Positions 5,106 to 36,343 are shown, counted from the first letter of the stretch. The stretch is 64,000 bases of DNA from Leucoraja ocellata (GCA_036785375.1 JAWMAR010001256.1:124001-188000), one strand, 5' to 3'. Program-made: numbers and translations. The notes: generated by a model from the letters alone, not told the origin.

Positions 5106-5554
5106 TAGCCTCTTGTCTATTTGCACAAGTTGTAGTGTTTACCTTTTTCTCTTTCTTACTTACTTTTCATGCTAATTCAATTCTAACTCCTCGATCCATT
5201 TTTGACTCCCCCCATTTCAGCAGTACCCCGATAATCAGGCTAGCACTTTTCACAGGTTGGGCCTCCTGATGTTAACAACACTGTAGACTCTATCAAGCAA
5301 ATTGTTTATACTGTATTATATTGTGCCTGTTATAGCATTAATTTCACAGTCATATATTAGACTTTTGTTGCCACTGGTTCCTGAATACATACTGTGTATT
5401 TCACTGCATTTACAGCCTAAAGCCATTTCTTGTCAAGACAATTTTTCCAACGATGCTACTTATATTTGTAACCACTAAATGAAGATGTAGGTAATGATAT
5501 AACAAGGGCTGTTTCTAGTGATACATTTGTACAGGTAAACAGAATATATCTTTG

Positions 5555-5560
5555 AATAAA
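5555..5560 (+). promoter_or_regulatory. Candidate polyadenylation signal of copy A (paralogous AATAAA at 33318-33323 in copy B)
   Basis: AATAAA in non-repeat sequence about 1.65 kb after the stop, conserved in both copies. No transcript data. Confidence 0.35.
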
Positions 5561-7320
5561 ATATAGCTTATTGGTGAAGCAATATTAAATACAAATGTTG
5601 GAAAAAAGAACCTATTCACATCAGTGTTGGCATTGAAAGTAACTACAGCTGTTTTCTCACAGCATTGGCCACAGTCATAGGGTGATACAGTGTGGAAACA
5701 GGCCCTTCGGCCCAACTTGCCCACACCGGCCAACAATGTCCCAGCTACACTAGTCCCACTAGCCTGCGCTTGGTCCATATCCCTCCAAACATGTCCTATC
5801 AATGTCCTGTCCTGTCTAACTGTTTCTTAAACGATGGGATAGTCCCAGCCTCAACTACCTCCTCTGGCAGCTTGTTCCATACACCCACCACCCTTTGCGT
5901 GAAAAAGTCACCCCTTGGATTCCTATTAAATCTTTACCCTTTCACCTTGAACCTATGTTCTCTGGTCCTCGATTTCCCTACTCTGGGCAAGACTCTGTGC
6001 ATCTACCCAATCTATTCCTCTCATGATTTTGTATACCTCTATATGATCTATGGTACACCTCTAGAAGTCTCCGCACATACTGTCCTCTGCTAAAGTTTTC
6101 CTACATCTGTGGATTGTATATTTAACACTGCAACAGAGCCAGCCACTCATTGCTTCTGTGGTCAATCAGATCAACTACATCAAGTTCCTTCAGTTGGAAC
6201 CTATGACCCCTACGCCTACAGAAGCTATGATTCCAGGAATAGACGATAACTCCTTACAAGGTATAGAAGCTCGGCCCTATATCTATATCATCCTATAGCC
6301 TATTCAACAACACCATCAGCGTTTGCCTCATCTGTAAGCTGACTCCTCAGACTTCCTACATTCATATCCAAGCTGTTCATGTATAGAATGTCAGCACTAG
6401 TTGTTGTGGTACATCACTGGTCATGTGCTTGCATCAACAAAGCCCATACTCTTCATCACCCATGTATCTCCTCATACCAAGTCACTTTTGAATCTAATTT
6501 GGCGGCTTGCCCTCGACCCCGTGGACATGTCCTTCACCCACACCGCTTGTCATCTACATTTAGGGGCGGCATGGTAGCGCAGCGGTAGAGTTGCTACCTC
6601 ACAGCCCAGAGATCCAAGTTTGATCCTGATTACAGGTGATGTATGTATGGAGTTTGTACCTTCTCCCCGTGACCTCCATGTCTCGGCCAGTGCATTGTGT
6701 AAGTGTCCAACACAGACAGCACACATTACGCTGGTTCTCTCAGTGATCTCACTATTGGTAGAGGTGACCTAACTTTAAGGGGATGAAAATATAACCAAAG
6801 TGTACAGACTTTTAAACACAGGCTGGCTACGTTCCTACCAGGCTGGAGTTTAGTCTAATGTCACGTGTACCGAGGTACCGAGAAAAGCCTTTGTCACGTG
6901 CTAACCAGTCAGTGGAAAGACAATACATGATTACAAACGAGCCGTCCACAGTGTACAGATACACGATGAAGGGAATAATGTGAATAACATTTAGTGCAAG
7001 ATAAAGCCAGTAAAGTCCGATCAAAGATACTCTAATAATGAACTAAACACAAACACAAACTCAAAAAAGCAGCATTTATTGAGAGGATTCAAATGTGGCA
7101 TTCAAGTTTATTTTATACCTTCTGAGTTGTCGATGTGTTTCTATCTATTGGTGTTTGACATTGAATTAAATAACGGAAATTAATAGGTGAACATTCACTT
7201 TCAATCACAAGAGTAAAACTCCTTCCCCTTAGGCAAGAACACTAGCAGCAACATGCGAGTCAGGTCAGCTGGGCGTGAGAGGGTTGAGATATTACAAGTC
7301 ACAAAAGAAGGATAACTGAA

Positions 7321-7578
7321 GAAGTCGGAGGTTCGATCATCCCGACAAGACGGCCTGTACATCGGGCCGTCCGTAGAGGCAACTGCGGAGGGTTCATGGC
7401 CCCGATCACGGATGAACAAAGAAGGAAGACTGACTGAACGTTATTGCCTTCCACCACGTGTTCATGTTGTATTCTATTGTGTATTGTGCTCATTTTGATT
7501 GTGTGGCTGCATGGTAAATCAAATTCCACTGTACCTTAACTGGTGCATGTGGCAATAAATGTGAACTTGAACTTGAAC
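7321..7578 (+). mobile_element. Non-autonomous Rex-tailed retroposon, copy-A specific
   Basis: Ends aataaatgtgaacttgaacttgaac. Absent from B at ~36500. Confidence 0.6.
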
Positions 7579-7924
7579 TCTGGCTCAAAGGTGCGTAGTA
7601 ATCATTTTAGTTCCAAAACCATACACTGATGATGACCAACGTAGGCGTTAGGCTTGTCATCCAGAAATGTTTAAACGATTTCCAACCGAAATATACTGGC
7701 CAGAAATTGTTCCATGTGATATAATGTTTTTGTGGGCTACCTGATAAAACTTTATCAAAAATTAAATCATGTGGGTTCCAAAGTACAGAGTCTTTCTTCC
7801 AGCTCCTTCGCGTGTAAGATGTGGTAACCCATAGAGATGCCTGGACAATTGGAGTGGGATTTAACTGGGAACTGACATTAACTGATGACCTTTAAGCTAT
7901 ACCTTACCTTCTATACTTCAGACT

Positions 7925-8210
7925 TTACTTTAGAGATACAGCGCGGAAACAGGCCCTTCGGCCATCGGGTCCATGCTGACCAATGATTGCCCCACACTAA
8001 TTCTATCCTACACACCAGGGACAATTTATAGAAGCCAATTAACCTACCAACCTTCACGTCTTTAGAGTGTGGGAGGAAACCGGAGCACCCGGAGAAAACC
8101 CACACGGTCACAGGGAGAACGTACAAACTCCGTACAGACAAGCACCCGTGGTCAGGATTGAACCCGGGTCTCTGATGCTGTAAGGCAGCAACTCTACCAC
8201 TGCGCCACTC
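7925..8210 (-). mobile_element. tRNA-derived V-SINE (paralog 36687-36972)
   Basis: Reverse complement of the SINE consensus. Confidence 0.8.
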
Positions 8211-9894
8211 TGCACCTCATGGCAACTCTATCTCAATCCCCCTCCATAGTCAGCAACTAATTACAGCCATCTAGCCCCAGCAACATGACCCACTCTCCCT
8301 GTAGCCACGAATGATTCAACCCTACCTCACCACTCCACCCCCACCCCATCTCTCCATTGTTACCCTCTAAGCTTCATGGTCCCAATCCATCCAACTACCA
8401 CAATGGGACGTTCAACAAAGCATTTTACAGCAACCTGTATTGAAGCATATTGTCCAGCAGAGAGAGCAATTAAACCATAGGAGGTTTAGGATACTATTTT
8501 CAGTTGTTGAATGCTGAAACAGTAAACTTTACTGATAACAGAAGGAAGTCACTGTGTGGTCATCAGATCAGAGACTGAGTTTGATCATGGAAGGACACAA
8601 AGTGCTGGAGTAACTCAACAGGTCAGGCAGTATCCCTGGAGAACGTGGATAGGTGACATCTCAGATAGTCCGTCTCCCTGACTCAGATCAGTTTAATAAT
8701 ATTAAGCCCTCATAAATGTTAGCCTCTTGCACTCTAAGGAATAAGAAGGCCCTAGTTTACTCAACTTCAGCTCAGATGCTTCAATCCTGGCATCATCTTT
8801 GTAAGTCTTTTCAGCTTCATGCCATCTTTCGTTAGCAGGGCCAACACGGAACACAATAAGGGTGGCGAGACTAATATCTTGTACATCTTCATGCGTTTAC
8901 TATACCAACTATGTTAGTGTCATCTGCAAACATACAAATCATGCCTTGCACATTCTCATTCAAATCCAATAATGTGAGAGGGAGGTTTTATGTGCATTCA
9001 TAACCTCAATGGTGGCAGAACCAGCTCTTGAAAGTTAAAGACAAGGCAACATAAAAGAGTTTCAAATGAAAATCAAAGTCAAAGAGCCTTTATCAGAACT
9101 GAGAATGAAAGATAACAAGTTAACCAATTGGCAGATTTGTAGATTAATTGGTTAATTTACCAAAAAAAAGTGTTGGAGTAACTCAGGGGGTTAGGCAGCA
9201 CCTCAATTCCATGATTCATAAAACATTTATCACCTTCCAGTCTACAGAAGTGGCCTCACCACAGCCCAGTACAATTGAAACAATTGCTCCCTATTCTTGA
9301 ACTCCAGGTCGATGCTATTATTGCCAATATGCCATTTCCCTTGTAAATCATTTGCCAGCTGACTTTGTGCAGTTCATACAAGGACAATTCATCGGGTGGC
9401 AGGGTGGCAGCGGTAGAGTTGCTGCCTTACAGGGCCAGAGACCCGGGTTCGATCCTGACTATGGGTGCTTGTTGTACGGAGTTTGTGCGTTCTCCCTGTG
9501 AACTGCGTAGGTCTCTAAAGCTGTAGTTTAGTTTATCTCTAAACTACAGCTCTCTCTACACCACACCATCTCCTAACCTGCACCATGTAGATAATATGTG
9601 TAGGAAGGAACCGAAGAAGCTGCTTTAAACAAAAGTCCTGAAACACCACCTCTTCCTTTTCTCCAGAGATGCTGTCAGATCCGCTGATTACTCCAGCTTT
9701 TGTGTCCATGTAGATAATACTGCTTTTAGATTCCTTTTGCTGAAGTGCTTAAATTCCATTTGCCAAGTTTTTACTCATGCACTCAACCTATCTACTATAT
9801 ATCCCTTTGCAGACCCCAAATATCATCAATGTAACGTGACCTCCAACCTATTTTCTTGTCCTCACCTCGGAACACATGACAATAAACAAATCTA

Positions 9895-15389: not shown

Positions 15390-15913
15390 ATTTACAAAAT
15401 GGTGAATTGTAAATTAGCACACTTGGTATCATGTAGACACAAACAGAATCATTTACATTTGTTATAAAAACCCTACTGCATACTTTAGTAGTGTCAGGGG
15501 TTATGGGGAGAAGGCAGGAGAATAGGGTTGAGAGGGAGAGATAGAATCTATCTTTGCTGATCTATCATAGATCAGCAAAGATTGATTGGCGGAATAGACT
15601 TGATGGGTCTTTTCTGCTCCTAGAACTTATGAAGGTATGAACTATGATGGGGAACAGCGGTGGTGGGGGTGGAAGTTGTTACTGTGACGGGAGACTGGGT
15701 AGGGAGGGGGTTACAGTGAACGGAATGTAGGAGGTTTACTATGATGAGGCAGGAGTAGAGGAGTAGGGTACTGTGAAGCAAGGAACTGCCGATGGTGTTT
15801 TTTTTTATGATCGGAATGTAGGTGAGGGTGAGAAGGGTGGGGAGTAACACCCATTGCGCTGATTATCAGAGCCAGTGTGAATCTTCCACTGATGTACAGC
15901 AAAGATACTAGAA

Positions 15914-18396
15914 GAAGGATGATATTTGTTACATAATGATAAAGCATCTAAGTGAGGAGGGACTCCAAAAGATACTTGCACTATACAACAAGGTGTGGGA
16001 AGAAGGGCGAATACCGGAGAGGTGGAAGGAAGCAATCATTGTGCCTATTAGGAAACCAGGGAAAGATGCAAGTAATCCAGTAAATTATAGACCTATAGCT
16101 TTAACAGCACACATGTGTAAACTGATGGAAAGAATGGTAAATGAAAGATTAATGCATCTAATGGAAGAAAACGGTATAGTGGCTAATTATCAGAGTGGCT
16201 TTAGAAAAGGGAGAGGTACTAATGATCCAGTTCTGTGCTTGGAAGATGATATAAGGAAAGCACAAGTTAAAAAAGAATCTGTGGTTACTGTATTTTTTGA
16301 TGTAGAGAAGGCTTATGATATGTTGTGGAGAGAAGGTCTTCTAATAAAGCTCCATTTAATGGGAGTAGGAGGAAATATTTTTAACTGGATAATGGATTTT
16401 CTTAACGGTAGAAGTATCCAAGTTAAAATAGGGTCAGACATCTCTAGTAAATGTGTAGTCGAGAATGGAACTCCCCAGGGAAGTGCGATAAGCCCGATCC
16501 TATTCTCAGTCATGATCAATGATATATTTGCAAACATTCAGCCAGAGATGGGGCGATCGCTCTTTGCAGATGATGGCAGCCTATGGAGAAGGGGGAGGAA
16601 TATAGATTTTATCGTGGAAAAAGTACAGCAAGGGATAGCCCAGGTGGAAGAGTGGGGAGTGAAATGGGGTTTTAAATTCTCTATAGAGAAGACAAAGACA
16701 ATGGTTTTCACAAGGAAGAAAATTAAAGAGGATGTCCAGTTAAAACTATACGGCAACAATTTGGAAAGAGTAAAAGATTTCCGTTTCCTGGGAGTCCACT
16801 TTGACTCCAGATTAACATGGAGGGTCCACATTACAAAAATAATTGGAAAATGCAAAAAAGCCATCAATGTAATGAGATGCTTGACAGGTTTAGAGTGGGG
16901 AGCAGATATATTATCGCTTAAACATATCTATGTATCACTGATCAGATCCAGACTAGAGTATGGCAGTATAGCTTATGGATCAGCATCTAAGTCGGTGTTG
17001 TCCGAGTTGGATAAAGTCCAAGCGGAAGCTCTAAGAATCTGTATAGGAGGTGTGCGGACGTCACCTGTATGTGCACTACAGGTGGAAACTGGGGAGATGC
17101 CGTTGAGACTGCGCCGCAGACAACTAATGGCTAATTACTGGCTAAGCCTTAAGGGTCATGGAGAGAACCACCCAACAAAACAGGTAGTACAGGAGTGCTG
17201 GGAGAGAGGGGTGGCTCAGTCTGGAAGCTTCGGCTGGGTTGGAGGAGGTGTGGCAAGGGACATGGAAGTAGAGGACAAAGAGTTCTGCCCTGCAGTATTG
17301 TGGCCATCTGTCCCAATATGGTTACTGAACATCCCAAAAGTTGATCTGGAGATATGGGAGGCAAAAAGGAGGGAGGAAAATTCGGACCTAAAAACAGAAT
17401 ACCATAACCATATATATAATAGATACAGGGAACACCTCTTAATCTTCACAGATGGATCAAAGGACCAGTAGCTGAAACAACAGGAGCAGCTGTGGTAGTG
17501 CAAGGGTTGAATGTTGAGATTTGCAAAAGAACAAATAATTATTTGGCAGTATATACAGTGGAACTGTACGCTATTTTGATGGCAGTTCGGTGGATCGAAC
17601 AGGTGCAACCATGCAAAATATTAATTTGTAGCGACTCATTGTCTGCAATCCAGAGTATTGGGTCTGGTGCGTCCCATAGGCGGCCTGACCTAGTGTATGA
17701 AATTCTACTACTATTAAGCCAAGTAACAAGGAGGGGCAGTGATGTGACTTTGTTGTGGGTCCCAGCACACATTGGTGTGCTAGGAAATGAAAAAGTGGAT
17801 AAATTAGCAAAAGAGGCCGTTAAAAAAGAGAACATAGAGGTAAACCTACAATTATCCAAATCTGAAGGAAGACACATTGTGTGGAAGAAAATAAATCAGG
17901 AATGGCAACAATACTGGGAACAGGAGACAAAGGGGAGACACCTCTATTCGCTACAAAACAGAGTGGTCATTACAGCAAGAAGAGGGGGGAACAGGAGAGA
18001 ACAGGTAGTATTAGCAAGATTGAGGATAGGACACACCCACCTGAACAGCACATTAAAAATGTTGGGAAAACACCCTACTGGGATGTGTGAGGAATGCCAT
18101 CAGCCGGAAACAGTTCAGCATGCTCTAGTTGCATGTAGAAGATATGCAACTGAAAGAAGAGTTTTGATCAATGAAATGAAGAAAATTGGAATGACAGATA
18201 TATCAGAAAAGAACATTCTAAAGTATGGAGGGGAAGGAAAAGGAGTAAAGTTGTTGTTTAATTTCTTGAGGGCCTCTGGCCTTATAAAAAGGATATAAAG
18301 ACATGAGGACTGTGGAGTGAAGCCAGAAGGAGGCAGCAATGCAACATTGTGGATGCCGGCTGCCGTAAAACTCCAAAGAAGAAGAAGAAGAAGAAG
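15914..18396 (+). mobile_element. 5'-truncated Nimb/I-group LINE (RT + RNase H + CCHC), young
   Basis: ORFs 15936-17471 (YRPIAL, FFDVEKAYD, GTPQGS, FADD, IFTDGSK) and 17492-18298 (RNase H WVPAHIGVLGNEKVD; CEECHQPETVQHALVAC). (GAA)n tail; 13-bp TSD aaagatactagaa at 15901-15913 and 18397-18409. Confidence 0.9.
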
Positions 18397-18878
18397 AAAG
18401 ATACTAGAATCTTTGGTCTACAGAATTTTTGTTTGTGGGCTGTGGGAGCGCTGTGTTCATTTGGACGGGCGGTGATCGGAGAGGCAGCAGGCGCCGAGGG
18501 TCGCAGTCATGGTCTCTACACTCACTTCAAGCGGGAGATACCTTCACCTCGTCTTGTTCGTATTCACGTTAACAAGTTAGTACAATCCTCATATCAAATG
18601 GCATTCTCCCATGGCATGTAGCATTTTTATTTCATGGCCAAGCTATTAAGCGGAGCTCAATAATCAGCGGGGGGATATCTTGTCATTTATTAATATCCAA
18701 ACAAAAAGTAGGAATGTAAAAATCAAGCATGTAATTTATCCCATCAGATAAAGCATAAAAAGAACTTTAATTTGATACCTAATTCACTTTCAGATCTTCA
18801 GTATTAAAAATGTTATGGCCATTTTCATACTCGGAAATTAGTATCTTGTTCCCTATTGCTTTTCCAATGACTTAACAC

Positions 18879-19087
18879 NNNNNNNNNNNNNNNNNNNNNN
18901 NNNNNNNNNNNNNNNNNNNNNNNNNNNNNNNNNNNNNNNNNNNNNNNNNNNNNNNNNNNNNNNNNNNNNNNNNNNNNNNNNNNNNNNNNNNNNNNNNNNN
19001 NNNNNNNNNNNNNNNNNNNNNNNNNNNNNNNNNNNNNNNNNNNNNNNNNNNNNNNNNNNNNNNNNNNNNNNNNNNNNNNNNNNNNNN
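18879..19087. other. Assembly gap (209 N)
   Basis: Run of N. Confidence 1.
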
Positions 19088-19685
19088 TCCTCTCCCTCTC
19101 CCCCTCCTCTCCCCTCTCCCCACCCCGTCTCCCCCTCCCCCCTCTCACCCCTCCCCCCCTGTGTGTGTGGGGGGTGGTTAATGTGCATGTGACGCTGAAT
19201 GCCACCGATACCGCGCATTGGGGGAACCCGTTATTCCAGCTGTGATGCCCGTTCACCGCCCCGCCCGCCACATCTGCAGCCAAATCCCTCTCCCTCGTTG
19301 GCATTTTATAACCTTGTTACTATAAACACATGTCTTGTATATATAACAAACACCTTTAATTATTTCCCTGTACGAAATACCAGATGTGCCTTTTATTTTA
19401 TAATTCTATTCTCAATGCACCTGTTAACCTTAATGCTAAGCTCAAATGTATTGTTTATAGACAATAGGTGCAGGAGTAGGCCATTCGGCCCTTCGAGCCA
19501 GCACCGCCATTCAATGTGATCATGGCTGATCATCCCTAATCAGTACCAATCTCTATACTTATAAAACTCTGATCTTGGATGTGTATGTATTTATGCAATG
19601 TTCGTGTGCGTTTCCCCGTTTGTTACTTCCCGTTTTTGTCCGGTACTAAATTCTTTACAATTTTAAACGTTTGCGGTTATTTAAT

Positions 19686-20655
19686 CTTTAAATTCACCAG
19701 AATCAAAAATCTCTATCTTTCCAGAAAGCACTGTACCATCTACAAGTTCAGAGGCAACTACAACAGCTTCAAGCATCACATCAGTTCCCACATCAAGGAC
19801 AGTAGAAACAACTGCAGGCAACACAAGTGCATCTTCAACTGAAGCTACCACCACCTTCGTGATCGCAATTACACCCACCGGTGAGTCCAGGATGCAACAG
19901 TAATACAAAATAAATATGTTCCTTACTCATCCAGTGAATAAGAATCGTTACAGTAGAACAAGTTAACATGGATTGGCCATGTGTGCTCCATGGCATATAC
20001 TGTTGGCCTATCTTCTGTCAAACACACCACAGATTTTGTTTCCAAATTCTTTGGTCCTTTGAAAACAAATGTGGTCAATTTTCCAGAAACTTGAAGAAAA
20101 TTATCATGTTGTTACAAAAATAAGGCAAAATTGGAGTTCAATACATTTTCTGCCCTAATAACACCAGTCTTTAAATTTACCAGAATCAAAATTCATCACC
20201 GTACCAGAAAGCACTGTACCATCTACAAGTTCAGAGGCAACTACAACAGCTTCAAGCACGTGCATCTTCAACTGAAGCTACCACCACCTTCGTGATCGCA
20301 CCAATTACACCCACCGGTGAGTCCGGTATGCAAGAGTAAAACAAAATAAATATGTTCCTTACTCATCCAGTGAATAAGAATCGTTACAGTAGAACAAGTT
20401 AACATGGATTGGCCATGTGTGTTCCATGGCATATACTGTTGGCCTATCTTCTGTCACCACAGATTTTGTTTCCAAATTCTTTGGTCCCTTGAAAACAAAT
20501 GTGGTCTATTTTCCAGAATATTGAAGAATATTCATGTTGATACAAAATAAGGCAAAATTGTAGTTCAATATATTTCCTGCCCTAACAACTTCAGTCTTTA
20601 AATTTACCTGAATCAAAAATCTCCACCTTTCCAGAAACCACAGTACCATCTACAA
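19686..20655 (+). repeat. Tandem repeat of mucin exon + intron (~430-480 bp unit, 2.1 copies)
   Basis: Units start at ~19686, 20169 and 20596. Copy 2 exon (20184-20316) has a frameshifting deletion; copy 3 is truncated. Confidence 0.85.
19701..19880 (+). other. Ser/Thr-rich mucin-like exon (intact copy 1; alternative in-frame acceptor at 19724)
   Basis: cag|AATCA...ACC G|gtgagt; 180 nt, phase 1-1; SKISIFPESTVPSTSSEATTTASSITSVPTSRTVETTAGNTSASSTEATTTFVIAITPT. Confidence 0.65.
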
Positions 20656-21130
20656 ATGTGTGTGTGTGGGGGGGGGGGGGGGGGGGTGGTTTGTGTGCGT
20701 GTGAAACCGCAGCACACACACCCCTCCCCCTCTTCCTCTCTCTCTCTCGTTGGGGATCTATACTTGGTCTAGTATATATTTAAAATGTTGAAGATGTTTT
20801 AGTCGCATTTAAGATTAATCCTGCGTCGCAATCGTCCGGCAATTTTTTTAAAAACGCGAACGGAAGCGCGAACGATTTTTCTTCATCAGGTAGCAGCCCG
20901 AGGAAATCCCTCTCCGACAACCAATATAAACCTGCATTTTAATCCCACCCCAAAGCCACCGGAATCGCACGCGCCGGCAGTGGCAGATTTGTAGCGCCGC
21001 TGATGGTAGGTTTTGTAACAACGCTACGATAGCAGATGATTGCTTATTTTTGGTGGCGTGAAGCAGGGACGCAGTGGGAGAGGGACGCAGGGACTCTGTG
21101 ATCACGCCATTACCAGCACCGGAGCAGCTA

Positions 21131-21523
21131 GTGTGTGCGTATATGTGTGAGAGTGAGTGTGCACGTGCTTAAGTGTGCGAGCATGTGGAATGTGTACGTG
21201 AGGGTGAGTGTGTATGTGTATGAATGTGTGTGTGAGTGAGGATATATGAGTGTGCGAGAGAATAGATGTGTGCGTGTGTGATAGTGATGAATGTGTGTGT
21301 AACTGTGAGTGTGTGTGATTGTGAGAGCATGTGTGAGTGCACGTGTGTTTGTGTAAGTGAGTGCGTGTGTGAGTGAGAGGGTGTGTGTGAGTGTGCTTAT
21401 GAGTGTTTGTGGATGTGTGTGTGTGGATGTGTGAAAGAGAGAGTGAGTGTGAATGTTCGTGTGAGAGTAAGTGTGTGAGTGTAAGTGTGTGAGAGTAAGT
21501 GAGTGAGTGAGTGAGTGAGTGAG
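21131..21523. repeat. Degenerate (GT/GA)n low-complexity tract
   Basis: Seen directly; it produces the spurious His/Thr-rich ORFs. Confidence 0.95.
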
Positions 21524-22330: not shown

Positions 22331-22606
22331 CTAAAGGGAATGGATTTGAGGTTCAGATAAACACAGACACTCCAGCTGTGGAAATCGGGGGCTCTTTGAA
22401 TGTGACCTGCAGAACCACATGTTTAAATCCTGAAATAAACATGGAACTAAAACCAGGGCTAGATAAATACTGCAATAAAGTTAACAACTCAAAGACATGC
22501 CAAATCCCAAATGTGAAGAGGTGGGATTTACCAATGGTTTGCAGTGTATCGTGCGAATCTGAAAGCAATACTCCAGTTGAGGCCAAAACAGTGATCATTG
22601 TGTACA
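22331..22606 (+). CDS. ICAM-like gene copy B, N-terminal Ig domain D1 exon
   Basis: Acceptor tttttctctgacag ends at 22330; donor TAC A|gtaagt. 276 nt, phase 1-1. Carries the CxxxC...CxxxC double-disulfide signature of ICAM/VCAM/MAdCAM D1 (VTCRTTC...VCSVSC) and NVKRWD like ICAM-4 DVRAWS. Confidence 0.9.
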
Positions 22607-24106: not shown

Positions 24107-24421
24107 ATCGAGATCTTGTCATTGCACCACATCCAAAGGTGATGGAAATTAACAAAACATATCAGCTTAATTGCACCGGTCCAAGAGTGTATCCAAACAA
24201 CAAGCTCCATCTCAAGTGGCTCAGAGGGAGCAAAGTTGTGAAGTCAGTTAACCCAACGGAACAAAAGTTTCCAGAAGATGTGACTCCGGTGGTCAATATT
24301 CTCAATCTCAATGCAAGCATGGCTGAGGATGGACAAGTGTACACATGCTTGGCAGAGCTGGACTTGGACACAAATACCACAAAAGAAATCGAATCCTCCT
24401 CCGTGACTCTGCAAACATACT
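24107..24421 (+). CDS. ICAM-like gene copy B, Ig domain D2 exon
   Basis: Acceptor ttctccttcaacag ends at 24106; donor TAC T|gtgagt. 315 nt, phase 1-1. YQLNC...VYP...WLRG...EDGQVYTCLAELDL matches ICAM/VCAM D2 (ICAM-1 CRTELDL, VCAM-1 VYP). Confidence 0.9.
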
Positions 24422-26214
24422 GTGAGTTCCACTTGAACAATAATTGCTCTCCTCTGCTCAAGACTAAGTTGAAACAAACTGGAGTCGCATTTTGTAAAGT
24501 TTAGTTTAGATATACAGCGTGGAAACAGGCCATTTGGCCCACCGGGTCTGTGCCAACCAGAGATCCCCCCACACCAATTTATAATTGTAGCACGCCAATT
24601 AGCCGGCAAAACTTGCATGTCTTTGAAGTGTGGGAGGAAGCCAGAGCTCCTGCATAAAACCCACACAGGTCACGGGGAGAATGTACAAACTCCGTACAGA
24701 TAGCACCCTTAGTCAGGATTGATCCCTGGTCTTTGGTGCTGTAAGGCAGTAACTCTACCCCTGTGCCACCGTGCTGTCTGCTGACACATTTACAAGCAAG
24801 CCACACACACTAAACCAGGAGAGATGAGTTATCTACAGAACAAGCACTTTAAGTTGAGTTTACCCTGTCTGCAAGGTTTCCTCTGTAGAACACGTTAACA
24901 CAATGTGTGTTTCTGCACTGTTTAGTATAGTTTAGTTTAGTGATACAGTGTGGAGACAGTGACACATAGTCAGGATCAAACCCGAGTCTCAGGCGCTGTA
25001 AGGCTGTAATTCTACCGCTGTGCCAAGCAACCTCCCCCCCACCTCATTACAACTATTATAGTATAAATAAAGTCAATTTAAATAACAGATTTGTGTGGCA
25101 CGGTAGCACAGCAAAAGAGCAACTGCCTTGCAGCGCCCGAGACCTGAGTTCGATCTTGACTAATGGTGCTGAATGTATGGAGTTTGCACGTTCTCCCCAT
25201 GATCTGCATGGATTTCATCTGGGATCTCCGTTTTCCACCCACACTCCAAAGCCATATAGGATTGTAGATTGATTGGCTCGGATAATTGTAATTGTCCCTA
25301 GTGTGTATAGGATAGCATTAGTGTGCCAGTTGGCGCGGACTCAGTGGGCTCCATTGTCTACAGAAAACTAATAAGCAATGAATTCCTTGTGTTGAGGATT
25401 ATCCATTAAATCTAACAAGGAGTGCCAACATTTCCATTGAGGTGTACAGTAAGCATGCTGGATAACCGGAGATTATGATTGATGTCATAGTCATACAGCG
25501 TGGAAACCGCTTCGGCCCAACTTTCCCACTCCGGCCAACATGTCCCAGCTACACTCATCCCACCTGCCCACGTTCGGCCCATATTCATCTAAACCTGTCC
25601 TATCCATGTAATTGTGTAACTAGTATCTTAAACATTGGGATAGTCCCTGCCTCAACTATCTCCTCTGGGAACTGTTAAAGATCCCTTTCTACCTATGGGC
25701 ACCCATTGCATGGGGACATTTGGTATAGGAGAGTCACAAAACTTTAATCAGCCTGTACAGAAACCACAATAATTAGGGGGAAAAAGGCAACATGATGTCA
25801 CCTAGATTCAGCTACATTCTTATTAATGGAAGATAGACACAAAATGCTGGAGTAACCCAGCGGGACAGGCAGCATCACTGGATAAAAGGAATGGGTGGCA
25901 TTTAGGGTCGAGACCCTTCTTCATTCAAGAGCTGCCTCGTTGGAGTGTGTGATAAAGCCCTGCTCTTATTTCGTCTGTTTTTAATGTAGATCCTGTTACA
26001 GAGGCAGCTACCAGCAACTGAATTTATCAGAGCTACAAACTGAATATATATGCATAACATTTACATAAAGGAGAAATATTGTAGTACCTTCCTTACGCCC
26101 AGGAATTCAATCAGTGGACTATTTACCATTGTTTTGAAAGCAAAGAGTTCCCTGAAGTGACATAGAAGCCTCTGGCTTGTTACCAGCCAGGGTGGAGATG
26201 CTAAATACTATAAA

Positions 26215-26742: not shown

Positions 26743-27619
26743 ACCCGGTGATGAGATTGGTATAGGGGGTGAATGATGCCGGGAATAATAGGGAGACTTT
26801 GGGTAATTGCCTCCGATCATTGTCCAACTACAGTTGGATGTAGAGCCATAGCTAAAGTCAATTAACCTACAAACCTGTACGTATTTGGAGTGCGGGAGGA
26901 AACTGGAGGACCTGGAGAAAACCCACACAAGTCACGGGGAGAATGTACAAATTCCGTACAGACAGCACCCATAGTCAAGATCGAACCTAGGTCTTTGACA
27001 CTACTATAAGGCAATTACATAAGGTGAGAGCATGCTGACCGGTTGCATCGTGGCTTGGTTCAGCAATTTGAGCGCCCTGGAGAGGAAAAGACTACAAAAA
27101 GTAGTAAACACTGCCCAGTCCATCATCGGCTCTGACCTTCCTTCCATCGAGGGGATTTATCGCAGTCGCTGCCTCAAAAAGGCTGGCAGTATCATCAAAG
27201 ACCCACACCATCCTGGCCACACACTCATCTCCCTGCTACCTTCAGGTAGAAGGTACAGGAGCCTGAAGACTGCAACAACCAGGTTCAGGAATAGCTACTT
27301 CCCCACAGCCATCAGGCTATTAAACCTGGCTCGGACAAAACTATGATTATTAATAACCCATTTTCTGTTGTTTGCACTTTATCAGTTTATTTATTCATGT
27401 GTGTATATATTTATATCATGGTATATGGACACACTTATCTGTTCTGTAGTAAATGCCTACTATGTTCTGTGTGCTGAAGCAAAGCAAGAATTTCATTGTC
27501 CTATACAGGGACACATGACAATAAACTCACTTGAAATTGAACATTAAAATCTACCGCCGCGCCACCGTGCTGCTCTAAGCTTTGATAGGGTTTCTAACAA
27601 TATTTTTCTGTTGTTGCAG

Positions 27620-27904
27620 TTCTCTCCGAACCTGTAATCCAAGCATCACTGACCATCGTTGATGGAAAACCGGTGAATATTACCTGCAGTGTGTTTAATG
27701 TCTCGGGAGAACTTCAACTTACACTGAAGAATGGGAATATGTCTTTGCCAAGCGAGTCATCCAGTACAGAGCACACTATCTACCACACTTTGCATCCAAA
27801 GATGGAGATGAATGGACAGCAGTTGACTTGTGTGGCTAAACTGACACTCCAAAATCACTCTGAACCCATTGTTAAGCAACAGAATATCACACTCAATGTG
27901 CAAA
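27620..27904 (+). CDS. ICAM-like gene copy B, Ig domain D3 exon
   Basis: Acceptor ttctgttgttgcag ends at 27619; donor A|gtaagt at 27905. 285 nt, differing from the copy A exon at 2 nt. Confidence 0.88.
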
Positions 27905-28289
27905 GTAAGTAACTTTACATTGGTGCCATCGAGTCTGCTCTGCCTTTCAATCATGAATAGGGTGGGATGATTTCGCAGCGGTAGAGTTGCTGCCTTACAG
28001 CGCCAGAGACCCGGGTTCGACCCTGTCTATGGGTTGCTTGTCTATATGCAGCTTTACATGCTCCCCCCCCCCCCGTAAACTGCATGTGTTTTCTCGGGGA
28101 TCTCCGGTTTCCTCCCACACTCCAAAGACGTAGTTTTGTAGGTTAATTGGCTTGGTATAATTGTAAATTGTATCTAGTGTGTGTATGATAGTGTTAGTGT
28201 TAGGAACCGCTGGTCGGTGCGGACTCTGTGGGCCAAAGGGCACGTTTCTGCGCTGTATCTTTAAACTAAACTAAACTAAGATAAAAAGA

Positions 28290-28685
28290 TTTTTTTTAAA
28301 TTTCAAAATAGACTTTATTCATTGATAAATATATACAATTCCTGAACCATTCACACAAACAAAATTCATCCGACATTCTCGGAGACTATACAAGTTTTTT
28401 CAGTACAATTTTTTTACATTTTTCAAATTTCACCAAACAGTCCCCCACCCGTGCCACTCTGTGGCCCCCTGGCGTGGGATACCTTCCCTTAATTTAATTT
28501 GAGGGGCGTCTCCACCATACCGTGCCCCCTATGTCCAGCAGCAGAAGGACCCTAGACTGTGGTCCTCCCCCACCGAGCCTTGGCTTTGGCTGCACCAAGC
28601 TTCAGCGAGTCCCTTAGCATGTACTCCTGCAGTCTGCAGTGGGCCAGTCGGCAACATTCCCTGACGGACATCTCGCTCTGCTGCT
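28290..28685 (-). mobile_element. L1/Tx1-type LINE 3' end, copy-B specific
   Basis: Minus strand reads CRLAHCRLQEYMLRDSLKLGAAKAKARWGRTTV*, then AATAAA and an A-rich tail (poly-T at 28290). Absent in A. Confidence 0.7.
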
Positions 28686-28720
28686 GTAACTGTAACTTGT
28701 AGACTCTCTGTTAACATCTA

Positions 28721-28981
28721 GACATATATAGACCCTGACCTCGGGTGGACTATGAGGGGGAGAACTGGATATTTTTAGTGCCTTCCCCCACAGTGAATTC
28801 TGCTGTGGGGGGACGTTTCATGTTGATTTCTATAGTGTACTGTTCTGTTTTTTCTCTTTTTTGTTTTGTATGGATATATTGACATTTGATCTGTTCAATT
28901 AATTTAATCAATCTCTGTAAAGCACTTTGGTTCAAATACTGGTTTTGTTGAAAAGTGCTATATAAATAAATAAAGATTATT
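28721..28981 (+). mobile_element. L2-like retroposon 3' end, copy-B specific
   Basis: Tail gtaaagcactttg...aaagtgctatataaataaataaagattatt, flanked by short direct repeat atcta. Absent in A. Confidence 0.6.
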
Positions 28982-31081
28982 ATCTACCTGTTTAGGGCGG
29001 GAATATTGGGAATGCAGAATTATAATTTATATTGAATGTACATTTTCTATCAGGTGAGGATCACAGGGAATAAATGGCCTCAGTACATGGATTGAAAAGG
29101 CTGTTTCGTGAATGCAACAAAGACCGCTATAACCAATGGGTGTAGGAACGTATTGCATTGCCGCCTAGTGGATCTGCTTGGAACTGCATGCTTTTTCGTG
29201 GTTCTCTTCAAAAAACAGGATGCTTCCAATGTAGAAACAAGGAGTGTGTAGGAAGGAACTGCAGATGCTGGTTTAAACCGAAGATAGACACAAAATGCTG
29301 GAGTAACTGAGTGGGACAGGCAGCATCTCTGGAGCGAAGGAATTGGTGACGTTTTGGGTCGAAACCTTTCAACAAAGATCTGATTTACAGACGAGGACAC
29401 GGAGTGCTGGAGCAACTCAACGGGTCAAGCAGCATCTCAGGAAACCATGGATAGGCCGCTCCTGAGATACTGCCTGACCCGCTGAGCTACTGCAATACTC
29501 TGTCTCTTCTTCAGGGTGCATGCAATGCAGAATAGGCATTAATATTGCACAACGCATCATTTACAGTTCTAAATGCAACTCACAATGCCAACCATAGACA
29601 TGAAGGATACAGTCGTTAATCTTCAATGGTTCAAAGGTCTGTTTATTGTCACGTATACCAATTAAGGTACAGTGGTAGGTGAATTACCATACAGCCATAT
29701 TAAAAAATAATGTGGCACCTCAGAGATTCTTTGTCAGTATTTCCATGGAATATCTTTGTGTCCCTGGAATATCCTGGTGTTTGGGACTTGAACCACTAAT
29801 CTCCTGACTCCAGGCAAGAGTACCAGCTGTACGACTTTATGTTAGACTGACCACTCTCAGTCTAATGTAAAGGAGTCCATTTGTCCACCAATGCCTTTGT
29901 TGAAGCAATCTTTGCCTTGTCACAACCCTCAGCATCCCCAGTGTCTACACCAAACACACTTAGCAGATAATTAACACAAGGAAACTTCCGGTAGTCTACA
30001 ATAAAAGCACAGTTCTGAGAACTCTTGAGAATATTCTGTGATTTCACACCTCTTGTTTCTGATTAACCCATAAATAGTAACACCAAAATAATGAAATAAC
30101 AGCAGGTAGAAAAATGAGCCCCTGTCAATTTCTGGACACTCAAATGTTTGCCCTTGTCTGCAGAAGGGTCCCGACCCAAAACGTCACCTCTCCATGTTCT
30201 CCATGGATGCTGCCTGGGATGAAGAACCGTAGTGACAGGATACCAAAGGTTCGGAGTTTCCCTTCTGGGTTAAACAGATGTGCTCTACAAAGCATCACCC
30301 AACTTGCTTTTGGTGAATAGTGGCAAAGAGTCTCTGAGGTACCACCTTTCAGACAAGGCATTAGAACATGCAGGTGGCATGGTGGCACAGAAGTAGAGTT
30401 GCTGCCTTACACCACCAAAGACATGGGTTCGATTCTGACTACGGGTGCTGTCTGTACAAAGTTTGTACATTCTCCCCGTGACCTGTGTACGTTTTATCTG
30501 GTATCTCCGGTTAGTGGGATAACATTGAACTAATGTGAATGGGTTATTGATGGTTGGCATGGACTCAGTGGGCCGAAGACCCTGTTTCCGCACTGAATTG
30601 CTAAACTAAGTTAAATGAAAATGGACTTTATTCTTCAAAAAATATTTAATTGTCCGTCGAGTAGCATGCTATGCCATTCGTACGCACAATGTGTTTATAA
30701 ATATAATGAGAAAACATTGGTTTAGTTTAGCTTATTGTCACATGTAACTGAGGTACAGTGAAAAGCTTTTGTTGTGTACTAACCAGCCAGTGGAAAGACA
30801 ATACATGATTACAATCGAGCCGTTCACAGTGTGCAGATACATGATACATGATAAGGGAATAACGTTTAGTGCAAAGTAAACCAGTAAAGTCCGATCAAAG
30901 ATAGTCCGAGGGTCCCCGATGAGGTAGATAGTAATTCGAGAGATTATAAGTAAATTATACCTGCAAATGAGTGCAGGCAAAATTCATGGATTTTGGAAAG
31001 AAAGGATCTGTAGTTTTACAGTAGATGTATTTGCTCAGAATGGATGATGATTGTGTAATGGTTTTTGTGAATTATCCACAG

Positions 31082-31317
31082 GTGAAGAATCGTCATGGGT
31101 GATCATCATCATGGGCTTTTCAATTGTGGGGGCAATAATAATAATGGCAATAATCTGCTATTGCCGGATCGACGGAGCTCGGAAAACAGGAGAATATAAT
31201 GTACTGAATCCAACACCCAGCAGAAACCAAGAAATCCCTCGTGTGAATGAACCTCTGGACATTTTTCCTTTGCAGGAAGTGATTTCAAACGGCAATGACA
31301 ATAACTCACAGACTTGA
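31082..31317 (+). CDS. ICAM-like gene copy B, transmembrane + cytoplasmic terminal exon (12 aa shorter tail)
   Basis: Acceptor ends at 31081. WVIIIMGFSIVGAIIIMAIICYC-RIDGARKTGEYNV. TGA at 31315-31317 where copy A has GGA. Confidence 0.87.
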
Positions 31318-32214
31318 CCAAATAATAATAGTTGTATTACACCTGTGAGTTAGACGGACATATCACAACAATTGTCTGAATATTGTTACTGAGGCGGCTC
31401 CTGATGCAATGTTACAGTCGACTGATGGCACTTACTCTAGGAAATGTAACAACAAATGTAACAACAGTTCATTCTCAGGAATGTTCTGAATTTTGGGTCG
31501 TTTTTGTGTCCATTTGTCAAACTCTGAACTGATACCAGAACGCTGGCATCAAAACCAGCTCAGCACCGAGAACATCAGAGCCATGCGACTTTTCTTCCCA
31601 TTGATGGGAATGGACATTGGATCACACACTTGGTGCAATAATCTTTCCAAGGTGAACTACTTGCTTAAATTACGTGAATGTTGTCTGATAAAAAATTGTC
31701 ATAAATGGATAAAATGTGAGTCGATGCCTTTTCCAGTATTCTTACCCTCTTGTCTAGGGAGGAACTGCAGATGCTGGTTTAATCCGAAGACAGACACAAA
31801 AGGCTGGAGTAACTCAGCAGGTCGGGCAGCATCTCTGAAGAAATTGAATAGGTGACGTTTTGGGTCGAGACCATTCTTCAATTTGAAGAAGGGTTTCAAC
31901 CCGAAATGTCACCTATTTCCTTTCTCCAGAGATGCTGCCTGACCCTCTGAGTTACTCCAGCTTTTTGTGCCTGTCTTCTCATCTTCTTGTCTAATTATTG
32001 CCATACTCTCATCCCTTCCTATCCCTGTAACCTCCTCCAACTACACAATGCCCAGTATTCATTCATGTTCATTTACAAAATCTAACTCATCCTAATTTCC
32101 ACTCGCCGGAGGGAGAGTAAGTCAAATGATCTCTCTGCTAGAGTAATCAGTGGAATTGCACTTAGTGCTGTAGAATACTGTATCCCAGTGTTATACATGA
32201 CGGGTTTGCACCCT

Positions 32215-32603
32215 TTAGTTTAGAAGGTTGAGAGGATCTTATTGAAACATATAAGATTGTTAAGGGTTTGGACACGCTGGAGGCAGGAAACATGTTCCCG
32301 ATGTTGGGGGAGTCCAGAACCAGGGGCCACAGTTTAAGAATAAGGGGTAAGCCATTTAGAATGGAGACGAGGAAACACTTTTTCTCACAGAGAGTTGTGA
32401 GTGTGTGGAATTCTCTACCGCAGAGGGCAGTGGAGGCAGGTTCTCTGGAGAGCTGGATAGGGCTCTTAAAGATAGCGGAGTTAGGGGATATGTGGAGAAG
32501 GCTGGAACGGGATACTGATTGGGGATGATGAGCGATGATCACATTGAATGGCGGTGCTGGCTCGAAGGGCCGAATGACCTTCTCCTGCACCTATTGTCTA
32601 TTA
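32215..32603 (+). mobile_element. CR1 LINE 3' end, copy-B specific, inside the putative 3'UTR minisatellite
   Basis: LIETYKIVKGLD..SRTRGHSLRIRG..RKHFFSQRVVSVWNSLP motif and CR1 3' stem tail. Empty site at 4750 in A. Confidence 0.85.
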
Positions 32604-34956
32604 TAGTGTTACACAATGATGGACCAGGCCCCATCAGTATTGTACGCCAGTGTTATACAGCGACTGCCCATCCCTACCGGTACTGCACCCCAGTGTTCCA
32701 TAGTGACAAGAGTTATCCCCATCAGTATTGTACCCCAGTGTTACACGGTGACGGACCTGTCCCTGCCAGTGCTGTATCCCAGTGTCATACAGTTACAGAC
32801 GTGTCCCCTCCATTACAGTACCCCAGCGTCAGACGTGTCCTCACCAGTCCCGTACCCGAATGTTACACAGTGATAGCCTCTTGTCTATTTGCATAGTTGT
32901 AGTGTTTAGTTTTTCTCTTTCTTACTTACTTTTCATGCTAATTCAATTCTAACTACTCGATCCATTTTTGACTCCCCCCATTTCAGCAGTACCCCGATAA
33001 TCAGGCTAGCACTTTTTACGTTGGGCCTCCTGATGTTAACGACACTGTAGACTCTATCAAGCAAATTGTTTAGAATGTATTCTATTGAGCCTGTTATAGC
33101 ATTAATTTCACAGTCATATATTAGACTTTTGTTGCCGCTGGTTCCTGAATACATACTGTGTATTTCACTCTATGTACAGCCTAAAGCCATTTCTTGTCAA
33201 GACAATTTTTCCAACGATGCTACTCATATTTGTAACCACTAAGTGAAATGTAGGTAATGATATAACAAGGGCGGTTTCTAGTGATACATTTGCACAAGTA
33301 AACAGAATATATCTTTGAATAAAATATAGCTTATTGATGAAGCAATATTAAATACAAATGTTGGAAAAAAGAACCTATTCACAACAATGTTGGCATTGAA
33401 AGTAACTACAGTTGTTTTCTCACTTCAACATGGTTGATCTCACTGCATTTGCCACAGTCAAAGAGTCATAGAGTGATACATTGTGGAAACAGGCCCTTCG
33501 GCCCAACTTGTCCACACCGGCCAATAATGTCCCAGCTACACTTGTCCCACTAGCCTGCGCTTGGTCCATATCCCTCCAAACATGTCCCATCCATGTACCA
33601 ATCCAACTGTTTCTTAAACAATGGGATAGTCCTACCCTCAACTTAAATCTATTTCACATTGTTTCATACATCCACCACCTTTTATGTGAAAATTTCACCC
33701 CTTGGATTCCTTTTAAATCTTTACCCCTTCACCGTGAACCTATGCTCTCTGGTCCTCGATTTCCCTACTCTGGGCAAGACTCTGTGCATCTACCCAATCT
33801 ATTCCTCTCATGATTTTGTATACCTCTATATGATCTATGGTACACCTCTAGAAGTCTCCGCACATACTGTCCTCTGCTAAAGTTTTCCTACATCTGTGGA
33901 TTGTATATTTAACACTGCAACAGAACCTGCCACTCATTGTTTCTGTGGTCAATCAGCTCAACTACATCAAGTTCCTTCAGTTGGAACCTATGACCCCTTC
34001 GCCTACAGAAGCTATGATTCCAGGAATAGACGATAACTGCTTACAAGGTATAGAAGCTCGGCCCTATATATATATCATCCTATAGCCTATTCAACAACAC
34101 CATCGGCGTTTGCCTCATCTGTAAGCTGACTCCTCAGACTTCCTACATTCATATCCAAGCTGTTCATGTATAGAATGTCAGCACTAGTTGTTGTGGTACA
34201 TCACTGGTCATGTGCTTGCATCAACAAAGCCCATACTCTTCATCACCCATGTATCTCCTCATACCAAGTCACTTTTGAATCTAATTTGGCAGCTTGCCCT
34301 CAACCCCGTGGACATGTCCTTCACCCACACCGCTTGTCATCTACATTTAGGGGCGGCATGGTAGCGCAGCGGTAGAGTTGCTACCTCACAGCCCAGAGAT
34401 CCGAGTTTGATCCTGATTACAGGTGATGTATGTATGGAGTTTGTACCTTCTCCCCGTGACCTCCATGTCTCGGCCAGTGCATTGTGTAAGTGTCCAACAC
34501 AGACAGCACACATTACGCTGGTTCTCTCAGTGATCTCACTATTGGTAGAGGTGACCTAACTTTAAGGGGATGAAAATATAACCAAAGTGTACAGACTTTT
34601 AAACACAGGCTGGCTACATTCCTACCAGGCTGGAGTTTAGTCTAATGTCACGTGTACCGAGGTACCGAGAAAAGCCTTTGTCACGTGCTAACCAGTCAGT
34701 GGAAAGACAATACATGATTACAAACGAGCCGTCCACAGTGTACAGATACACGATGAAGGGAATAATGTGAATAACATTTAGTGCAAGATAAAGCCAGTAA
34801 AGTCCGATCAAAGATAGTCTAATAATGAATTAAACACAAACACAAACTCAAAAAAGCAGCATTTATTGAGAGGATTCAAATGTGGCATTCAAGTTTATTT
34901 TATACCTTCTGAGTTGTCGATGTGTTTCTATCTATTGGTGTTTGACATTGAATTAA

Positions 34957-36343
34957 ATTCAATTCAATTCAATTCAATTCAATTCAATTCAATTCAACTT
35001 TAATGTCATCGCACAAATACAAGTATCAGTACAACGAAATGCAGTTTTGCGTCAGTCCGTAGTAGTTGTACATAAAGAGAAAAGACAAGAAAAAAATAGA
35101 AAGAGAGAAGATACAGAATAATCAGGAAATACAGAATGATTAAACAAAGGGGGACGGAGGGACCAGAGAGTCTATCGTCGGGACTCCGAGTTCAGCAGTG
35201 TGATTGTGTTGTTATAGAAGCTTTTCCTCATCCTGCTGGTACGTGACCTGAGGCTCCTGTACCGCCTCCCTGATGGGAGGAGGGCAAACAGTCCATGGTT
35301 GGGGTGTGAGGGGTCTTTGATGATCTTCCCAGCCCGTCTCAGACACCGTTTTCGGTGGAGGGCATCCATGGCAGGGAGCGGGGCACCGATGATGTGCTGC
35401 GCGGTTTTCACCACCCGTTGTAGTGCTTTCCTGTCCGCAGCAGTGCAGCTGCTGTACCATACCGTGAAGCAGGTGGTCAGGATACTCTCTATGGTACAGC
35501 GGTAAAAGTTGGTCAGGATCTGGGGGGACAGGTGGGCTTTCTTGAGCCTCCTAAGGAAGTAAAGGCGCTGCTGTGCCTTTTTGATCAGCTTGGAGGTGTT
35601 GAGGGACCAGGACAAGTCCTCCGAGATATGCACTCCGAGGAATTTATAGCTGGAGACGCGCTCCACCTCAGTCCCGTTGATGTGGATGGGGGTATGACTG
35701 CCTCCTCTGGTCTGCCTGAAGTCGACAATAATCTCCTTCGTCTTTTTGGAGTTGAGGATGAGGTTATTGTCGGCACACCAGGTGGTCAGGTGCTGGATCT
35801 CATCCCTGTAGGCTGACTCATCGTTGTCGCTGATCAGTCCTACTACCGTGGTATCGTCAGCAAACTTAATAATGGCGTTGGATCCGTGCTTTGGGATGCA
35901 GTCGTGGGTGAAGAGGGAGTAGAGGAGAGGGCTGAGCACACAGCCCTGTGGCACTCCGGTGTTCAGTGTTATAGTGGAGGAGGTGAGGTTATTGACCCTA
36001 ACAGACTGTGGTCTGTTAGTGAGGAAGTCCAATGTCCAGTTGCAGAGGGAGGTGGAGATGCCAAGTCCACTGAGTTTGGTGATCAAGCTGGCTGGGATGA
36101 CGGTGTTAAAGGCAGAGCTGAAGTCTATGAACAGCAGCCTGATGTAGGAGTTGTTGTGGTCCAGGTGGGTCAGGGCAGAGTGTAGGGCCGCCGATATGGC
36201 GTCCTCTGTAGACCTGTTGGTCCGGTAGGCAAACTGGTGGGGGTCCAGTGTGGGGGGGAGGCAGGCTTTGAGGTGAGCCAAGATCAGCCGCTCAAAGCAC
36301 TTTGCAATAACAGGGGTGAGTGCCACTGGGCGGAAATCGTTGA
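34957..36343 (-). mobile_element. 5'-truncated Rex1/Babar LINE with intact 384-aa RT C-terminal ORF
   Basis: ORF 35172-36326 ([39 protein letters not shown]); (TTGAA)n tail at ~34957-34998. Absent from copy A. Confidence 0.92.

Follow-up and report, generated by a model that had tools for sequence, protein, structure and literature searches.

An ICAM-like gene of the skate Leucoraja ocellata carries, in its first intron, a foreign segment (19550–20772) whose exons are homologous to the repeat of a skate mucin-16-like protein, and lie on the strand and in the phase that allow splicing to the first immunoglobulin (Ig) domain. The explanation that accounts best for all the observations, and which we hold to be probable, is that a fragment of a MUC16-like gene was captured and brought into the ICAM-like gene by a carrier of the Helitron type, and that it is capable of producing a mucin–ICAM fusion. 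All positions refer to the window, i.e. the whole 64-kb stretch of DNA that was analysed.

The host gene

The window consists of vertebrate DNA with many short repeats, and the named proteins that are closest to its genes all come from skates (Leucoraja erinacea, Rhinoraja longicauda and Amblyraja radiata). It contains two copies of an ICAM-like gene: copy A, which starts mid-gene at base 1 and is represented by its 3′ half, the 5′ half lying outside the 64-kb window, and copy B, which is complete. A search with the first Ig domain (D1) retained three proteins from 27 candidates, P0001, P0002 and P0003, the last two of which helped to define the exons of copy B:

18509..18575, + strand: coding exon 1, signal peptide, 22 codons plus 1 nt, phase-1 donor (22 of 23 residues match the N-terminus of P0002; P0003 likewise)
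22331..22606, + strand: D1 exon, ICAM N-terminal domain (Pfam and PDB sequence matches, see below)
24107..24421, + strand: D2 Ig exon (homology)
25394..25447, + strand: remnant of the D3 exon, last 18 codons, the rest being deleted (18/18 identical to residues 300–317 of P0002)
27620..27904, + strand: D4-type Ig exon (homology)
31082..31317, + strand: transmembrane and tail exon (TGA at 31315; tail 12 residues shorter than in copy A)

The stop of copy B at 31315–31317 compares with a counterpart at 3866–3904 in copy A. When the mucin exons are skipped, the frame of copy B is open across 392 codons. The D1, D2 and D4 exons have the same phase, 1-1, as the first mucin unit of the insert.

D1 belongs to family PF03921 (ICAM_N; 34 bits for a cut-off of 21). 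Its best PDB sequence matches are ICAM-2, ICAM-1 and ICAM-3, and no MAdCAM is found among the 13 PDB matches of D1, nor any MAdCAM-1 among the 16 PDB matches of P0002. Foldseek with a model of D1 returns nothing at E ≤ 0.001, the top row being D1 of ICAM-3 with an E value of only 6e-3. As in ICAM-1, -2, -3 and -5, a PF03921 D1 is followed by Ig domains, a transmembrane segment and a short tail; contrary to these proteins, copy B has the option of an N-terminal mucin.

Since the signal exon precedes the mucin segment, and since P0002 and P0003 join the signal peptide directly to D1, this segment lies inside intron 1. The first-pass annotation had correctly located it upstream of the first Ig exon, but it is within the gene, after the signal exon (18509–18575), rather than upstream of it.

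The two copies of the gene result from a recent tandem duplication followed by copy-specific repeat insertions: positions 1–9512 align with 26790–38810 at 94–98%, and a reverse transcriptase-like fragment (about 35175–36350, minus strand) is present in copy B only and absent from copy A. Upstream of copy B, a 5′-truncated non-LTR retroelement of about 2.5 kb (15901–18409, + strand) encodes a reverse transcriptase (PF00078) and an RNase H (PF00075) in two overlapping frames. It has a GAA tail and is accompanied by a target duplication of 13 bp; its end lies 100 nt upstream of the ATG of copy B, whose promoter may have been displaced by the insertion. The sequence 18600–18878 is AT-rich, single copy in the window and looks like a truncated repeat; it runs into an assembly gap of 209 N (18879–19087) located in intron 1, about 460 nt upstream of the insert, which could hide more units or other elements.

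The structure of the insert

The insert consists of a captured array between two arms, as follows:

19550..19684, + strand: left arm, 135 nt, A|TC start, first 17 nt TA-rich, not homologous to the units
19685..20655, + strand: captured exon+intron array, 971 nt, which opens 16 nt ahead of an acceptor and breaks off 45 nt into unit 3
19701..19880, + strand: unit 1 exon, open, phase 1-1, homologue of the mucin-16-like 53-aa repeat; long form of 180 nt, short form of 156 nt from 19725
19881..20183, + strand: captured intron 1, 303 nt; it agrees with captured intron 2 at 276 of 294 aligned bases
20184..20316, + strand: unit 2 exon, 133 nt, with a 50-nt deletion and intact splice sites; stop at 20273 if included
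20317..20610, + strand: captured intron 2, from its alignment to captured intron 1
20611..20655, + strand: unit 3 stub, 45 nt; its downstream acceptor (20635) is intact, the upstream one has mutated to ctg, and it has no native donor
20656..20772, + strand: right arm, 117 nt, TG/G-run and CA/C-rich simple repeats, long fold-back at 20670–20737, ends CTAG|T

The description first given of this segment holds in its essentials. It runs from an A|TC junction (A at 19549, TC at 19550–19551) to a CTAG|T junction (CTAG at 20769–20772, then T), and the 2.1 tandem units announced correspond to a repeated block of two units plus 61 nt. Unit 1 is an intact exon rich in Ser and Thr (Ser, Thr and Pro make up 34 of its 59 residues), open in both its long (19701–19880) and short (19725–19880) forms. 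It is on the same strand and in the same phase as the Ig exons, and the distance of about 2.45 kb to D1 is that between the donor at 19880 and position 22331 (2,451 nt). The similarity between the units is not a matter of chance (547 nt at 82.5%, E 6e-168). The block opens just ahead of an acceptor, by 16 nt, and breaks off within an exon, so it must be a fragment of a longer array.

Unit 1 has the splice context ccag|...CCG|gtgagt, and the donor of unit 2 is the same (CCG|gtgagt). The short acceptor has 11 pyrimidines out of 15 in units 1 and 3, with a branch motif at −29, and this count equals that of D1 and D4; the acceptors of unit 2 have 9 out of 15. The long acceptor of unit 1 has lost everything beyond −16, while unit 2 keeps the native branch region. 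We infer that the short acceptor is native, the 8 additional residues of the long form being derived from former intron.

Units 1 and 2 differ by 1 substitution in 106 positions of the short exon and by 18 in 294 positions of the intron (Fisher p 0.032). This contrast hints at past selection on the exon, possibly while it was still in the donor gene; it is a single marginal test, for which selection in the donor and gene conversion are alternative causes.

The likely donor of the mucin exons

A phmmer search with unit 1 against 1,835,955,588 representative proteins gives only two matches at E ≤ 0.001, P0001 and P0004. The latter, named mucin-16-like [Amblyraja radiata], is a protein of 3,584 aa with 23 SEA domains; mucin-16 SEA structures lead its PDB matches, its N-terminus is made of a 53-aa repeat, and the model begins inside the repeats. 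P0005 is its counterpart in L. erinacea. An alternative mentioned in the first-pass annotation, that the segment is a piece of another mucin gene, is thereby borne out, the exon search pointing to skate mucin-16-like as the likely donor.

The short-acceptor exon, together with an extra codon that is seen in unit 2 and in P0001, amounts to 53 codons, which is the repeat period of P0004. The local score of unit 1 against P0004 is 169, compared to a mean of 80.5 ± 6.1 for shuffled sequences, and none of 2000 composition-preserving shuffles reaches it. The core of unit 1 aligns in register with four repeats of P0004 (31–34 of 45 residues identical) and with two repeats of P0005 (30/45, and 26/45 for the second, which is partial). 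The repeats of P0004 are identical to one another at 31–38 of 45 positions. Unit 1 is only 58–76% identical to the known donor repeats (26–34/45), against 39/45 for the best A. radiata–L. erinacea pair, and it is possible that the source was a paralogous mucin rather than this exact MUC16-like stretch, or that the sequence diverged later.

What was taken from the donor is limited. The repeat alone of P0004 and P0005 matches the window, which has no SEA domain or other mucin part; the insert holds only 2.1 repeats, with neither SEA nor membrane part, and its long acceptor adds 8 residues that are absent from the donor repeat. The residues at the predicted exon junctions are E, A, E, A and E in P0004, and E and D in P0005, with I in a partial first repeat. 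Except for I, all are encoded by codons that start with G, as given by phase-1 exons that end in G, an argument that is weak and not independent. The insert is a hint that each MUC16 repeat of skates has an exon of its own.

A word-based homologue search with the mucin unit among proteins of 105–2000 aa had returned only P0001 among 259 candidates; the length of the donor put it outside this range. No Pfam family covers the mucin unit. The retained introns exclude retroposition. Capture at the DNA level from a MUC16-like gene is very likely, the donor locus itself being putative.

A related protein in L. erinacea

P0001 is isoform X2 of the L. erinacea gene LOC129714544, an NCBI prediction called 'uncharacterized protein'. 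From the N-terminus, it consists of an 8-residue stub, two identical 61-aa units, an Ala, D1, D2, D4 and the transmembrane segment. The unit core is identical to that of unit 1 at 44 of 45 positions, and the Ala at the junction is what results from the G of the unit donor and the CT of D1 (in P0002, A and CT give Thr). The insert would also explain this 'uncharacterized' RefSeq protein.

Like copy B, P0001 has a mucin unit before D1, and the two have two further derived states in common: D3 is lost, and the tail is short, ending in NSQT in both. It differs from the window in that its two units are intact and identical and preceded by a stub, with no signal peptide, whereas the window has one intact and one frameshifted unit. 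P0001 is identical to copy B at 101 of 104 positions in D2 and 91 of 94 in D4, but at only 79 of 91 in D1. Its D4 is closer to that of copy A (92/93) than to that of copy B (91/94), and the pattern of D4 and tail hints at exchange between paralogues. The features assigned to P0001 in the ESM Atlas are generic ICAM/VCAM clusters only, MAdCAM coming at rank 10.

On the contrary, P0002, from an assembled 2,167-nt contig, and P0003, from Rhinoraja (Arhynchobatidae), have the signal exon joined straight to D1, without mucin; P0002 is of the 4-Ig, long-tail paralogue type. Since the cassette is common to copy B and to the LOC129714544 locus, it predates their split, be it a speciation or a duplication. 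The idea of exon shuffling caught in progress must be amended in this respect: the exons were indeed captured, but not recently enough to be specific to this locus. P0001 is carried by a sequence of 12,333,785 nt and P0005 by one of 31,094,262 nt; if both belong to one assembly, these different lengths argue against a local duplication.

Predicted splicing of the mucin exons in this allele

Nine isoforms were enumerated from the window. Skipping the mucin exons gives a protein of 392 aa, and including unit 1 alone gives 452 or 444 aa, depending on the acceptor. The six isoforms that contain unit 2 all stop at 20273. A stop located upstream of several introns leads to nonsense-mediated decay, so these messages are predicted to be degraded. 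The N-terminal mucin–ICAM fusion that the first-pass annotation envisaged is therefore supported by the compatible phases and by the mucin-to-D1 junction of the L. erinacea model, but that annotation did not take into account that unit 2 is a frameshifting exon whose splice sites are intact.

Altogether, it is fairly likely that the cassette is spliced, and a fusion transcript made, in some skate; that the allele examined here yields a functional fusion at the cell surface is doubtful. We found no description of this feature in the literature searched.

The most serious alternative, to which we give somewhat less than an even chance, is that the captured MUC16 fragment is silent or poisons the message: it would either be skipped, or be included with unit 2 and cause decay, copy B being a degenerating gene and P0001 a mis-joined model. 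This reading is compatible with a Helitron carrier. It agrees with the stop at 20273 in six of the nine isoforms, with a donor of unit 2 that equals that of unit 1, with a native branch region that unit 2 has kept and that the long acceptor of unit 1 has lost beyond −16, and with the three other lesions of copy B. The fact that P0001 starts inside a repeat and has no signal peptide also points in this direction, as does the contig of P0002, which is assembled without mucin; but P0002, being of the 4-Ig, long-tail paralogue type, is uninformative on copy B. Against this reading, the short acceptor of unit 1 is as rich in pyrimidines as those of D1 and D4 (11/15, with its branch motif at −29) and richer than those of unit 2 (9/15), the frame of copy B has stayed open over 392 codons, and the two units of P0001 are intact and have cores nearly identical to that of unit 1 (44/45).

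The putative carrier

Skate genomes probably carry Helitron families of high copy number whose ends look broadly like these. According to PMC11417382, PMC6591975, PMC12001565 and PMC4778049, HLE1 elements have a 5′ TC preceded by a target A, and a 3′ CTRR followed by a target T; both are found in the insert. The insert agrees as well with the TA-rich start that PMC12001565 describes for vertebrate HLE1. The 20 nt that follow the CTAG comprise 18 A/T, tied for the highest value among the 71 CTAGT sites of the window, in keeping with the 3′-flank preference described in PMC4778049.

HLE1 elements also have, according to PMC6591975, a GC-rich hairpin of 16–20 nt located 10–15 nt from the 3′ end. 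Near the CTAG of the insert there is no GC-rich hairpin: 20735–20772 folds at 0 kcal/mol, and a scan of the 3′ end for stems of at least 6 gives none before 20769. The only stable 3′ fold is a long G-run/C-run simple-repeat stem that ends 35 nt upstream of the end (z −4.05). Loss of the hairpin is reported in PMC4778049 to lower transposition and to promote read-through, so that the hairpinless insert would be largely stranded. The termini, the TA-rich start and the AT-rich sequence that follows the 3′ end agree with the Helitron identity proposed initially; the lack of a hairpin does not. We therefore describe the insert as Helitron-like rather than assigning it to HLE1, and we think it fairly likely that its carrier was a Helitron.

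The terminal motifs carry little weight individually. CTAGT occurs 38 times on the + strand of the window and 33 times on the − strand, and is found within 120 nt downstream of 6.9% of positions; the A|TC motif is also weak on its own. A start made of TC, TATA and an AT-rich stretch, a pattern defined after seeing this one, is found within 140 nt upstream of 1.1% of positions. Multiplying the two frequencies (0.069 × 0.011) gives a joint chance of about 8e-4 that both motifs lie no further than some 130 nt from the breakpoints, with the reservation that the left motif is post hoc.

No second copy of either arm was detected in the 64-kb window using nhmmer --max and mismatch scans, the best non-self matches of the arms being simple-repeat matches (for example 19167–19212, nhmmer E 0.14). 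The decayed sequence 19160–19330 has a TG/G-run layout like that of the right arm (nhmmer E 0.07–0.14), and is possibly an older relic of a related element. The match at 46298 to one of the arms, with 3 mismatches, was rejected as the tail of a common short repeat. A generic 11-mer pattern of the start gives 2 matches for 1.29 expected, which is uninformative. An 18-mer of the left arm is found at 28 loci of prokaryote genomes, none of which matches beyond 23 nt, and these were attributed to chance. The 25 Rfam matches of 20658–20751 at E ≤ 1 are all to microRNA models, far below gathering scores, and reflect the simple-repeat fold-back. Directly after the insert, 20773–21131 is CpG-rich, single copy in the window and ends in CTAG|T (21128–21132) without a hairpin; it may be another element, or the end of a longer read-through.

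Regarding published elements, Helitrons are numerous in skates, with 11,154 HLE1 for L. erinacea and two RepHel references of A. radiata in the supplement of PMC11417382. The word Helitron is absent from the available text of the little skate genome paper (PMC10115646). Sequences of skate Helitron ends were not found in the literature text or in the HELIANO supplement. Two non-autonomous HLE1 cases with gene capture, HelibatN3/Helraiser of bats (PMC4778049) and Heli1Xen1 of Xenopus (PMC12001565), resemble the insert: they have TC...CTAG between A and T, a TA-rich start and an AT-rich 3′ flank, and they contain a host fragment with splice sites, with the potential to impose intronic splicing on a host gene. 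The insert differs from them by the lack of a subterminal GC hairpin. HelibatN3 (PMC4778049) supplies a promoter and a donor that truncate the host protein, while the insert provides internal, frame-preserving cassette exons behind the host signal peptide.

It is rather unlikely that the MUC16 fragment came by another DNA route (templated insertion during break repair, ectopic recombination between repeats, or another transposon), with TC and CTAG ends that would be due to chance or be remnants of separate elements. Such a route would account for the missing subterminal hairpin, and the exact 9-bp direct repeat just inside both ends (19552–19560 and 20757–20765) may represent a target-site duplication, despite a third occurrence at 7910. 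Intron 1 is also crowded with repeat relics: a truncated repeat stops 1–2 nt before the TC of the insert, and the match at 19167–19212 is a weak relic of the right arm. However, the 25 longest of the 35 inverted pairs include no terminal inverted repeat that would match one end of the insert to the other, retroposition is excluded by the introns, and both the low joint chance of the end motifs, even with a left motif chosen post hoc, and the AT-rich 3′ flank are better accounted for by the Helitron-type carrier.

Two other explanations are very improbable. If the mucin exons were old and native to the ICAM-like family and lost from its other copies, their strand, their phase and their presence in a second skate model would be expected, but they are colinear with the mucin-16-like repeat and truncated at both ends, they are absent from P0002 and from P0003 of an arhynchobatid, and no other ICAM with this repeat appears among the 1,835,955,588 representatives. 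If MUC16 reads had been misplaced beside the 209-N gap, which lies close to the insert, in a region of tandem arrays that assemblies often collapse, an independent NCBI model (P0001) would hardly have the same unit before the same type of D1 with a different unit content, nor would the unit differ from the annotated MUC16 repeats.

Proposed mechanism

We propose that about 1 kb of DNA was copied, with its introns, out of the tandem Pro/Thr/Ser repeats of a skate mucin-16-like gene, and that the copy was carried between two transposon-like arms, most likely those of a non-autonomous rolling-circle (Helitron-type) element. It would have inserted, in the sense direction, into intron 1 of one of the tandem ICAM-like paralogues. 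As phase 1-1 is common to the captured exons and to all ICAM exons, splicing can place an intact unit between the signal peptide and D1, which would give the protein an N-terminal tip that may be O-glycosylated (452 or 444 aa instead of 392). Since then, the units would have varied in number and integrity: the L. erinacea model has two that are intact and identical, and the window has one that is intact and one that is frameshifted. In the allele under study, the outcome would be set by splicing: a plain 3-Ig protein if both units are skipped, the fusion if unit 1 is included alone, and a stop at 20273 and probable decay if unit 2 is included.

Possible function

In the fusion that contains unit 1 only, a segment of 52–60 residues, 58% of which are Ser, Thr or Pro, would cap D1 and, by analogy with other mucins, would be O-glycosylated and extended. 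This cap could shield D1 or present glycans. The integrin-binding Glu of ICAMs is at the end of strand C. Glu38 of D1 aligns with the Glu of ICAM-1, is invariant in 4 of 4 sequences and ends a predicted strand (33–38); the alignment with ICAM-2 puts a Lys at this place. The ICAM-type Glu is thus probably present at the end of strand C, and integrin binding is putative.

Among the window copy, P0001 and P0002, D1 diverges by 13–16%, D2 by 3–6% and D4 by 0–3%; the identities between skate copies are 76–79/91 for D1 and 98–101/104 for D2. The divergence of D1 suggests diversifying pressure on the very domain that the mucin would cover, a pattern typical of a ligand- or pathogen-facing surface.

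The first-pass annotation likened the combination of mucin and Ig domains to MAdCAM-1, which also has Ig adhesion domains and a mucin stretch in one chain. The analogy is poor. In MAdCAM-1, the mucin lies below the Ig domains and the integrin motif is of the Asp type, while here D1 is of the ICAM type and the mucin would precede and cap it, instead of lying between the Ig domains and the membrane. CD45, which has alternatively spliced N-terminal mucin exons, is a closer likeness.

It may be that rajid skates express an adhesion receptor of the form signal–mucin(n)–ICAM, which arose by Helitron transfer of MUC16 repeat exons between chromosomes, whose number of units varies with the species or the allele, and in which the frameshifted unit acts as a splicing switch between capped, uncapped and degraded products, thereby shielding or retargeting a fast-evolving D1; we regard this as an improbable scenario. 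The deletion of D3, the shortened tail, the retroelement 100 nt before the ATG and the broken unit 2 also fit a decaying copy, which is a live reading of copy B.

Implications

If the cassette only poisons the message, copy B is an ordinary duplicate gene damaged by a transposon. Transposon capture and imposed splicing are already known; what is unusual here is how well both donor and recipient can be traced, and few vertebrate captures in the literature consulted have an identified donor and recipient together with an in-frame protein product and living intermediates. In related skates, the empty (P0002, P0003), intact two-unit (P0001) and half-broken (window) states can be compared. The idea that phase 1-1 exons drive the shuffling of extracellular domains is therefore directly testable in this family, using existing genomes and RNA-seq.
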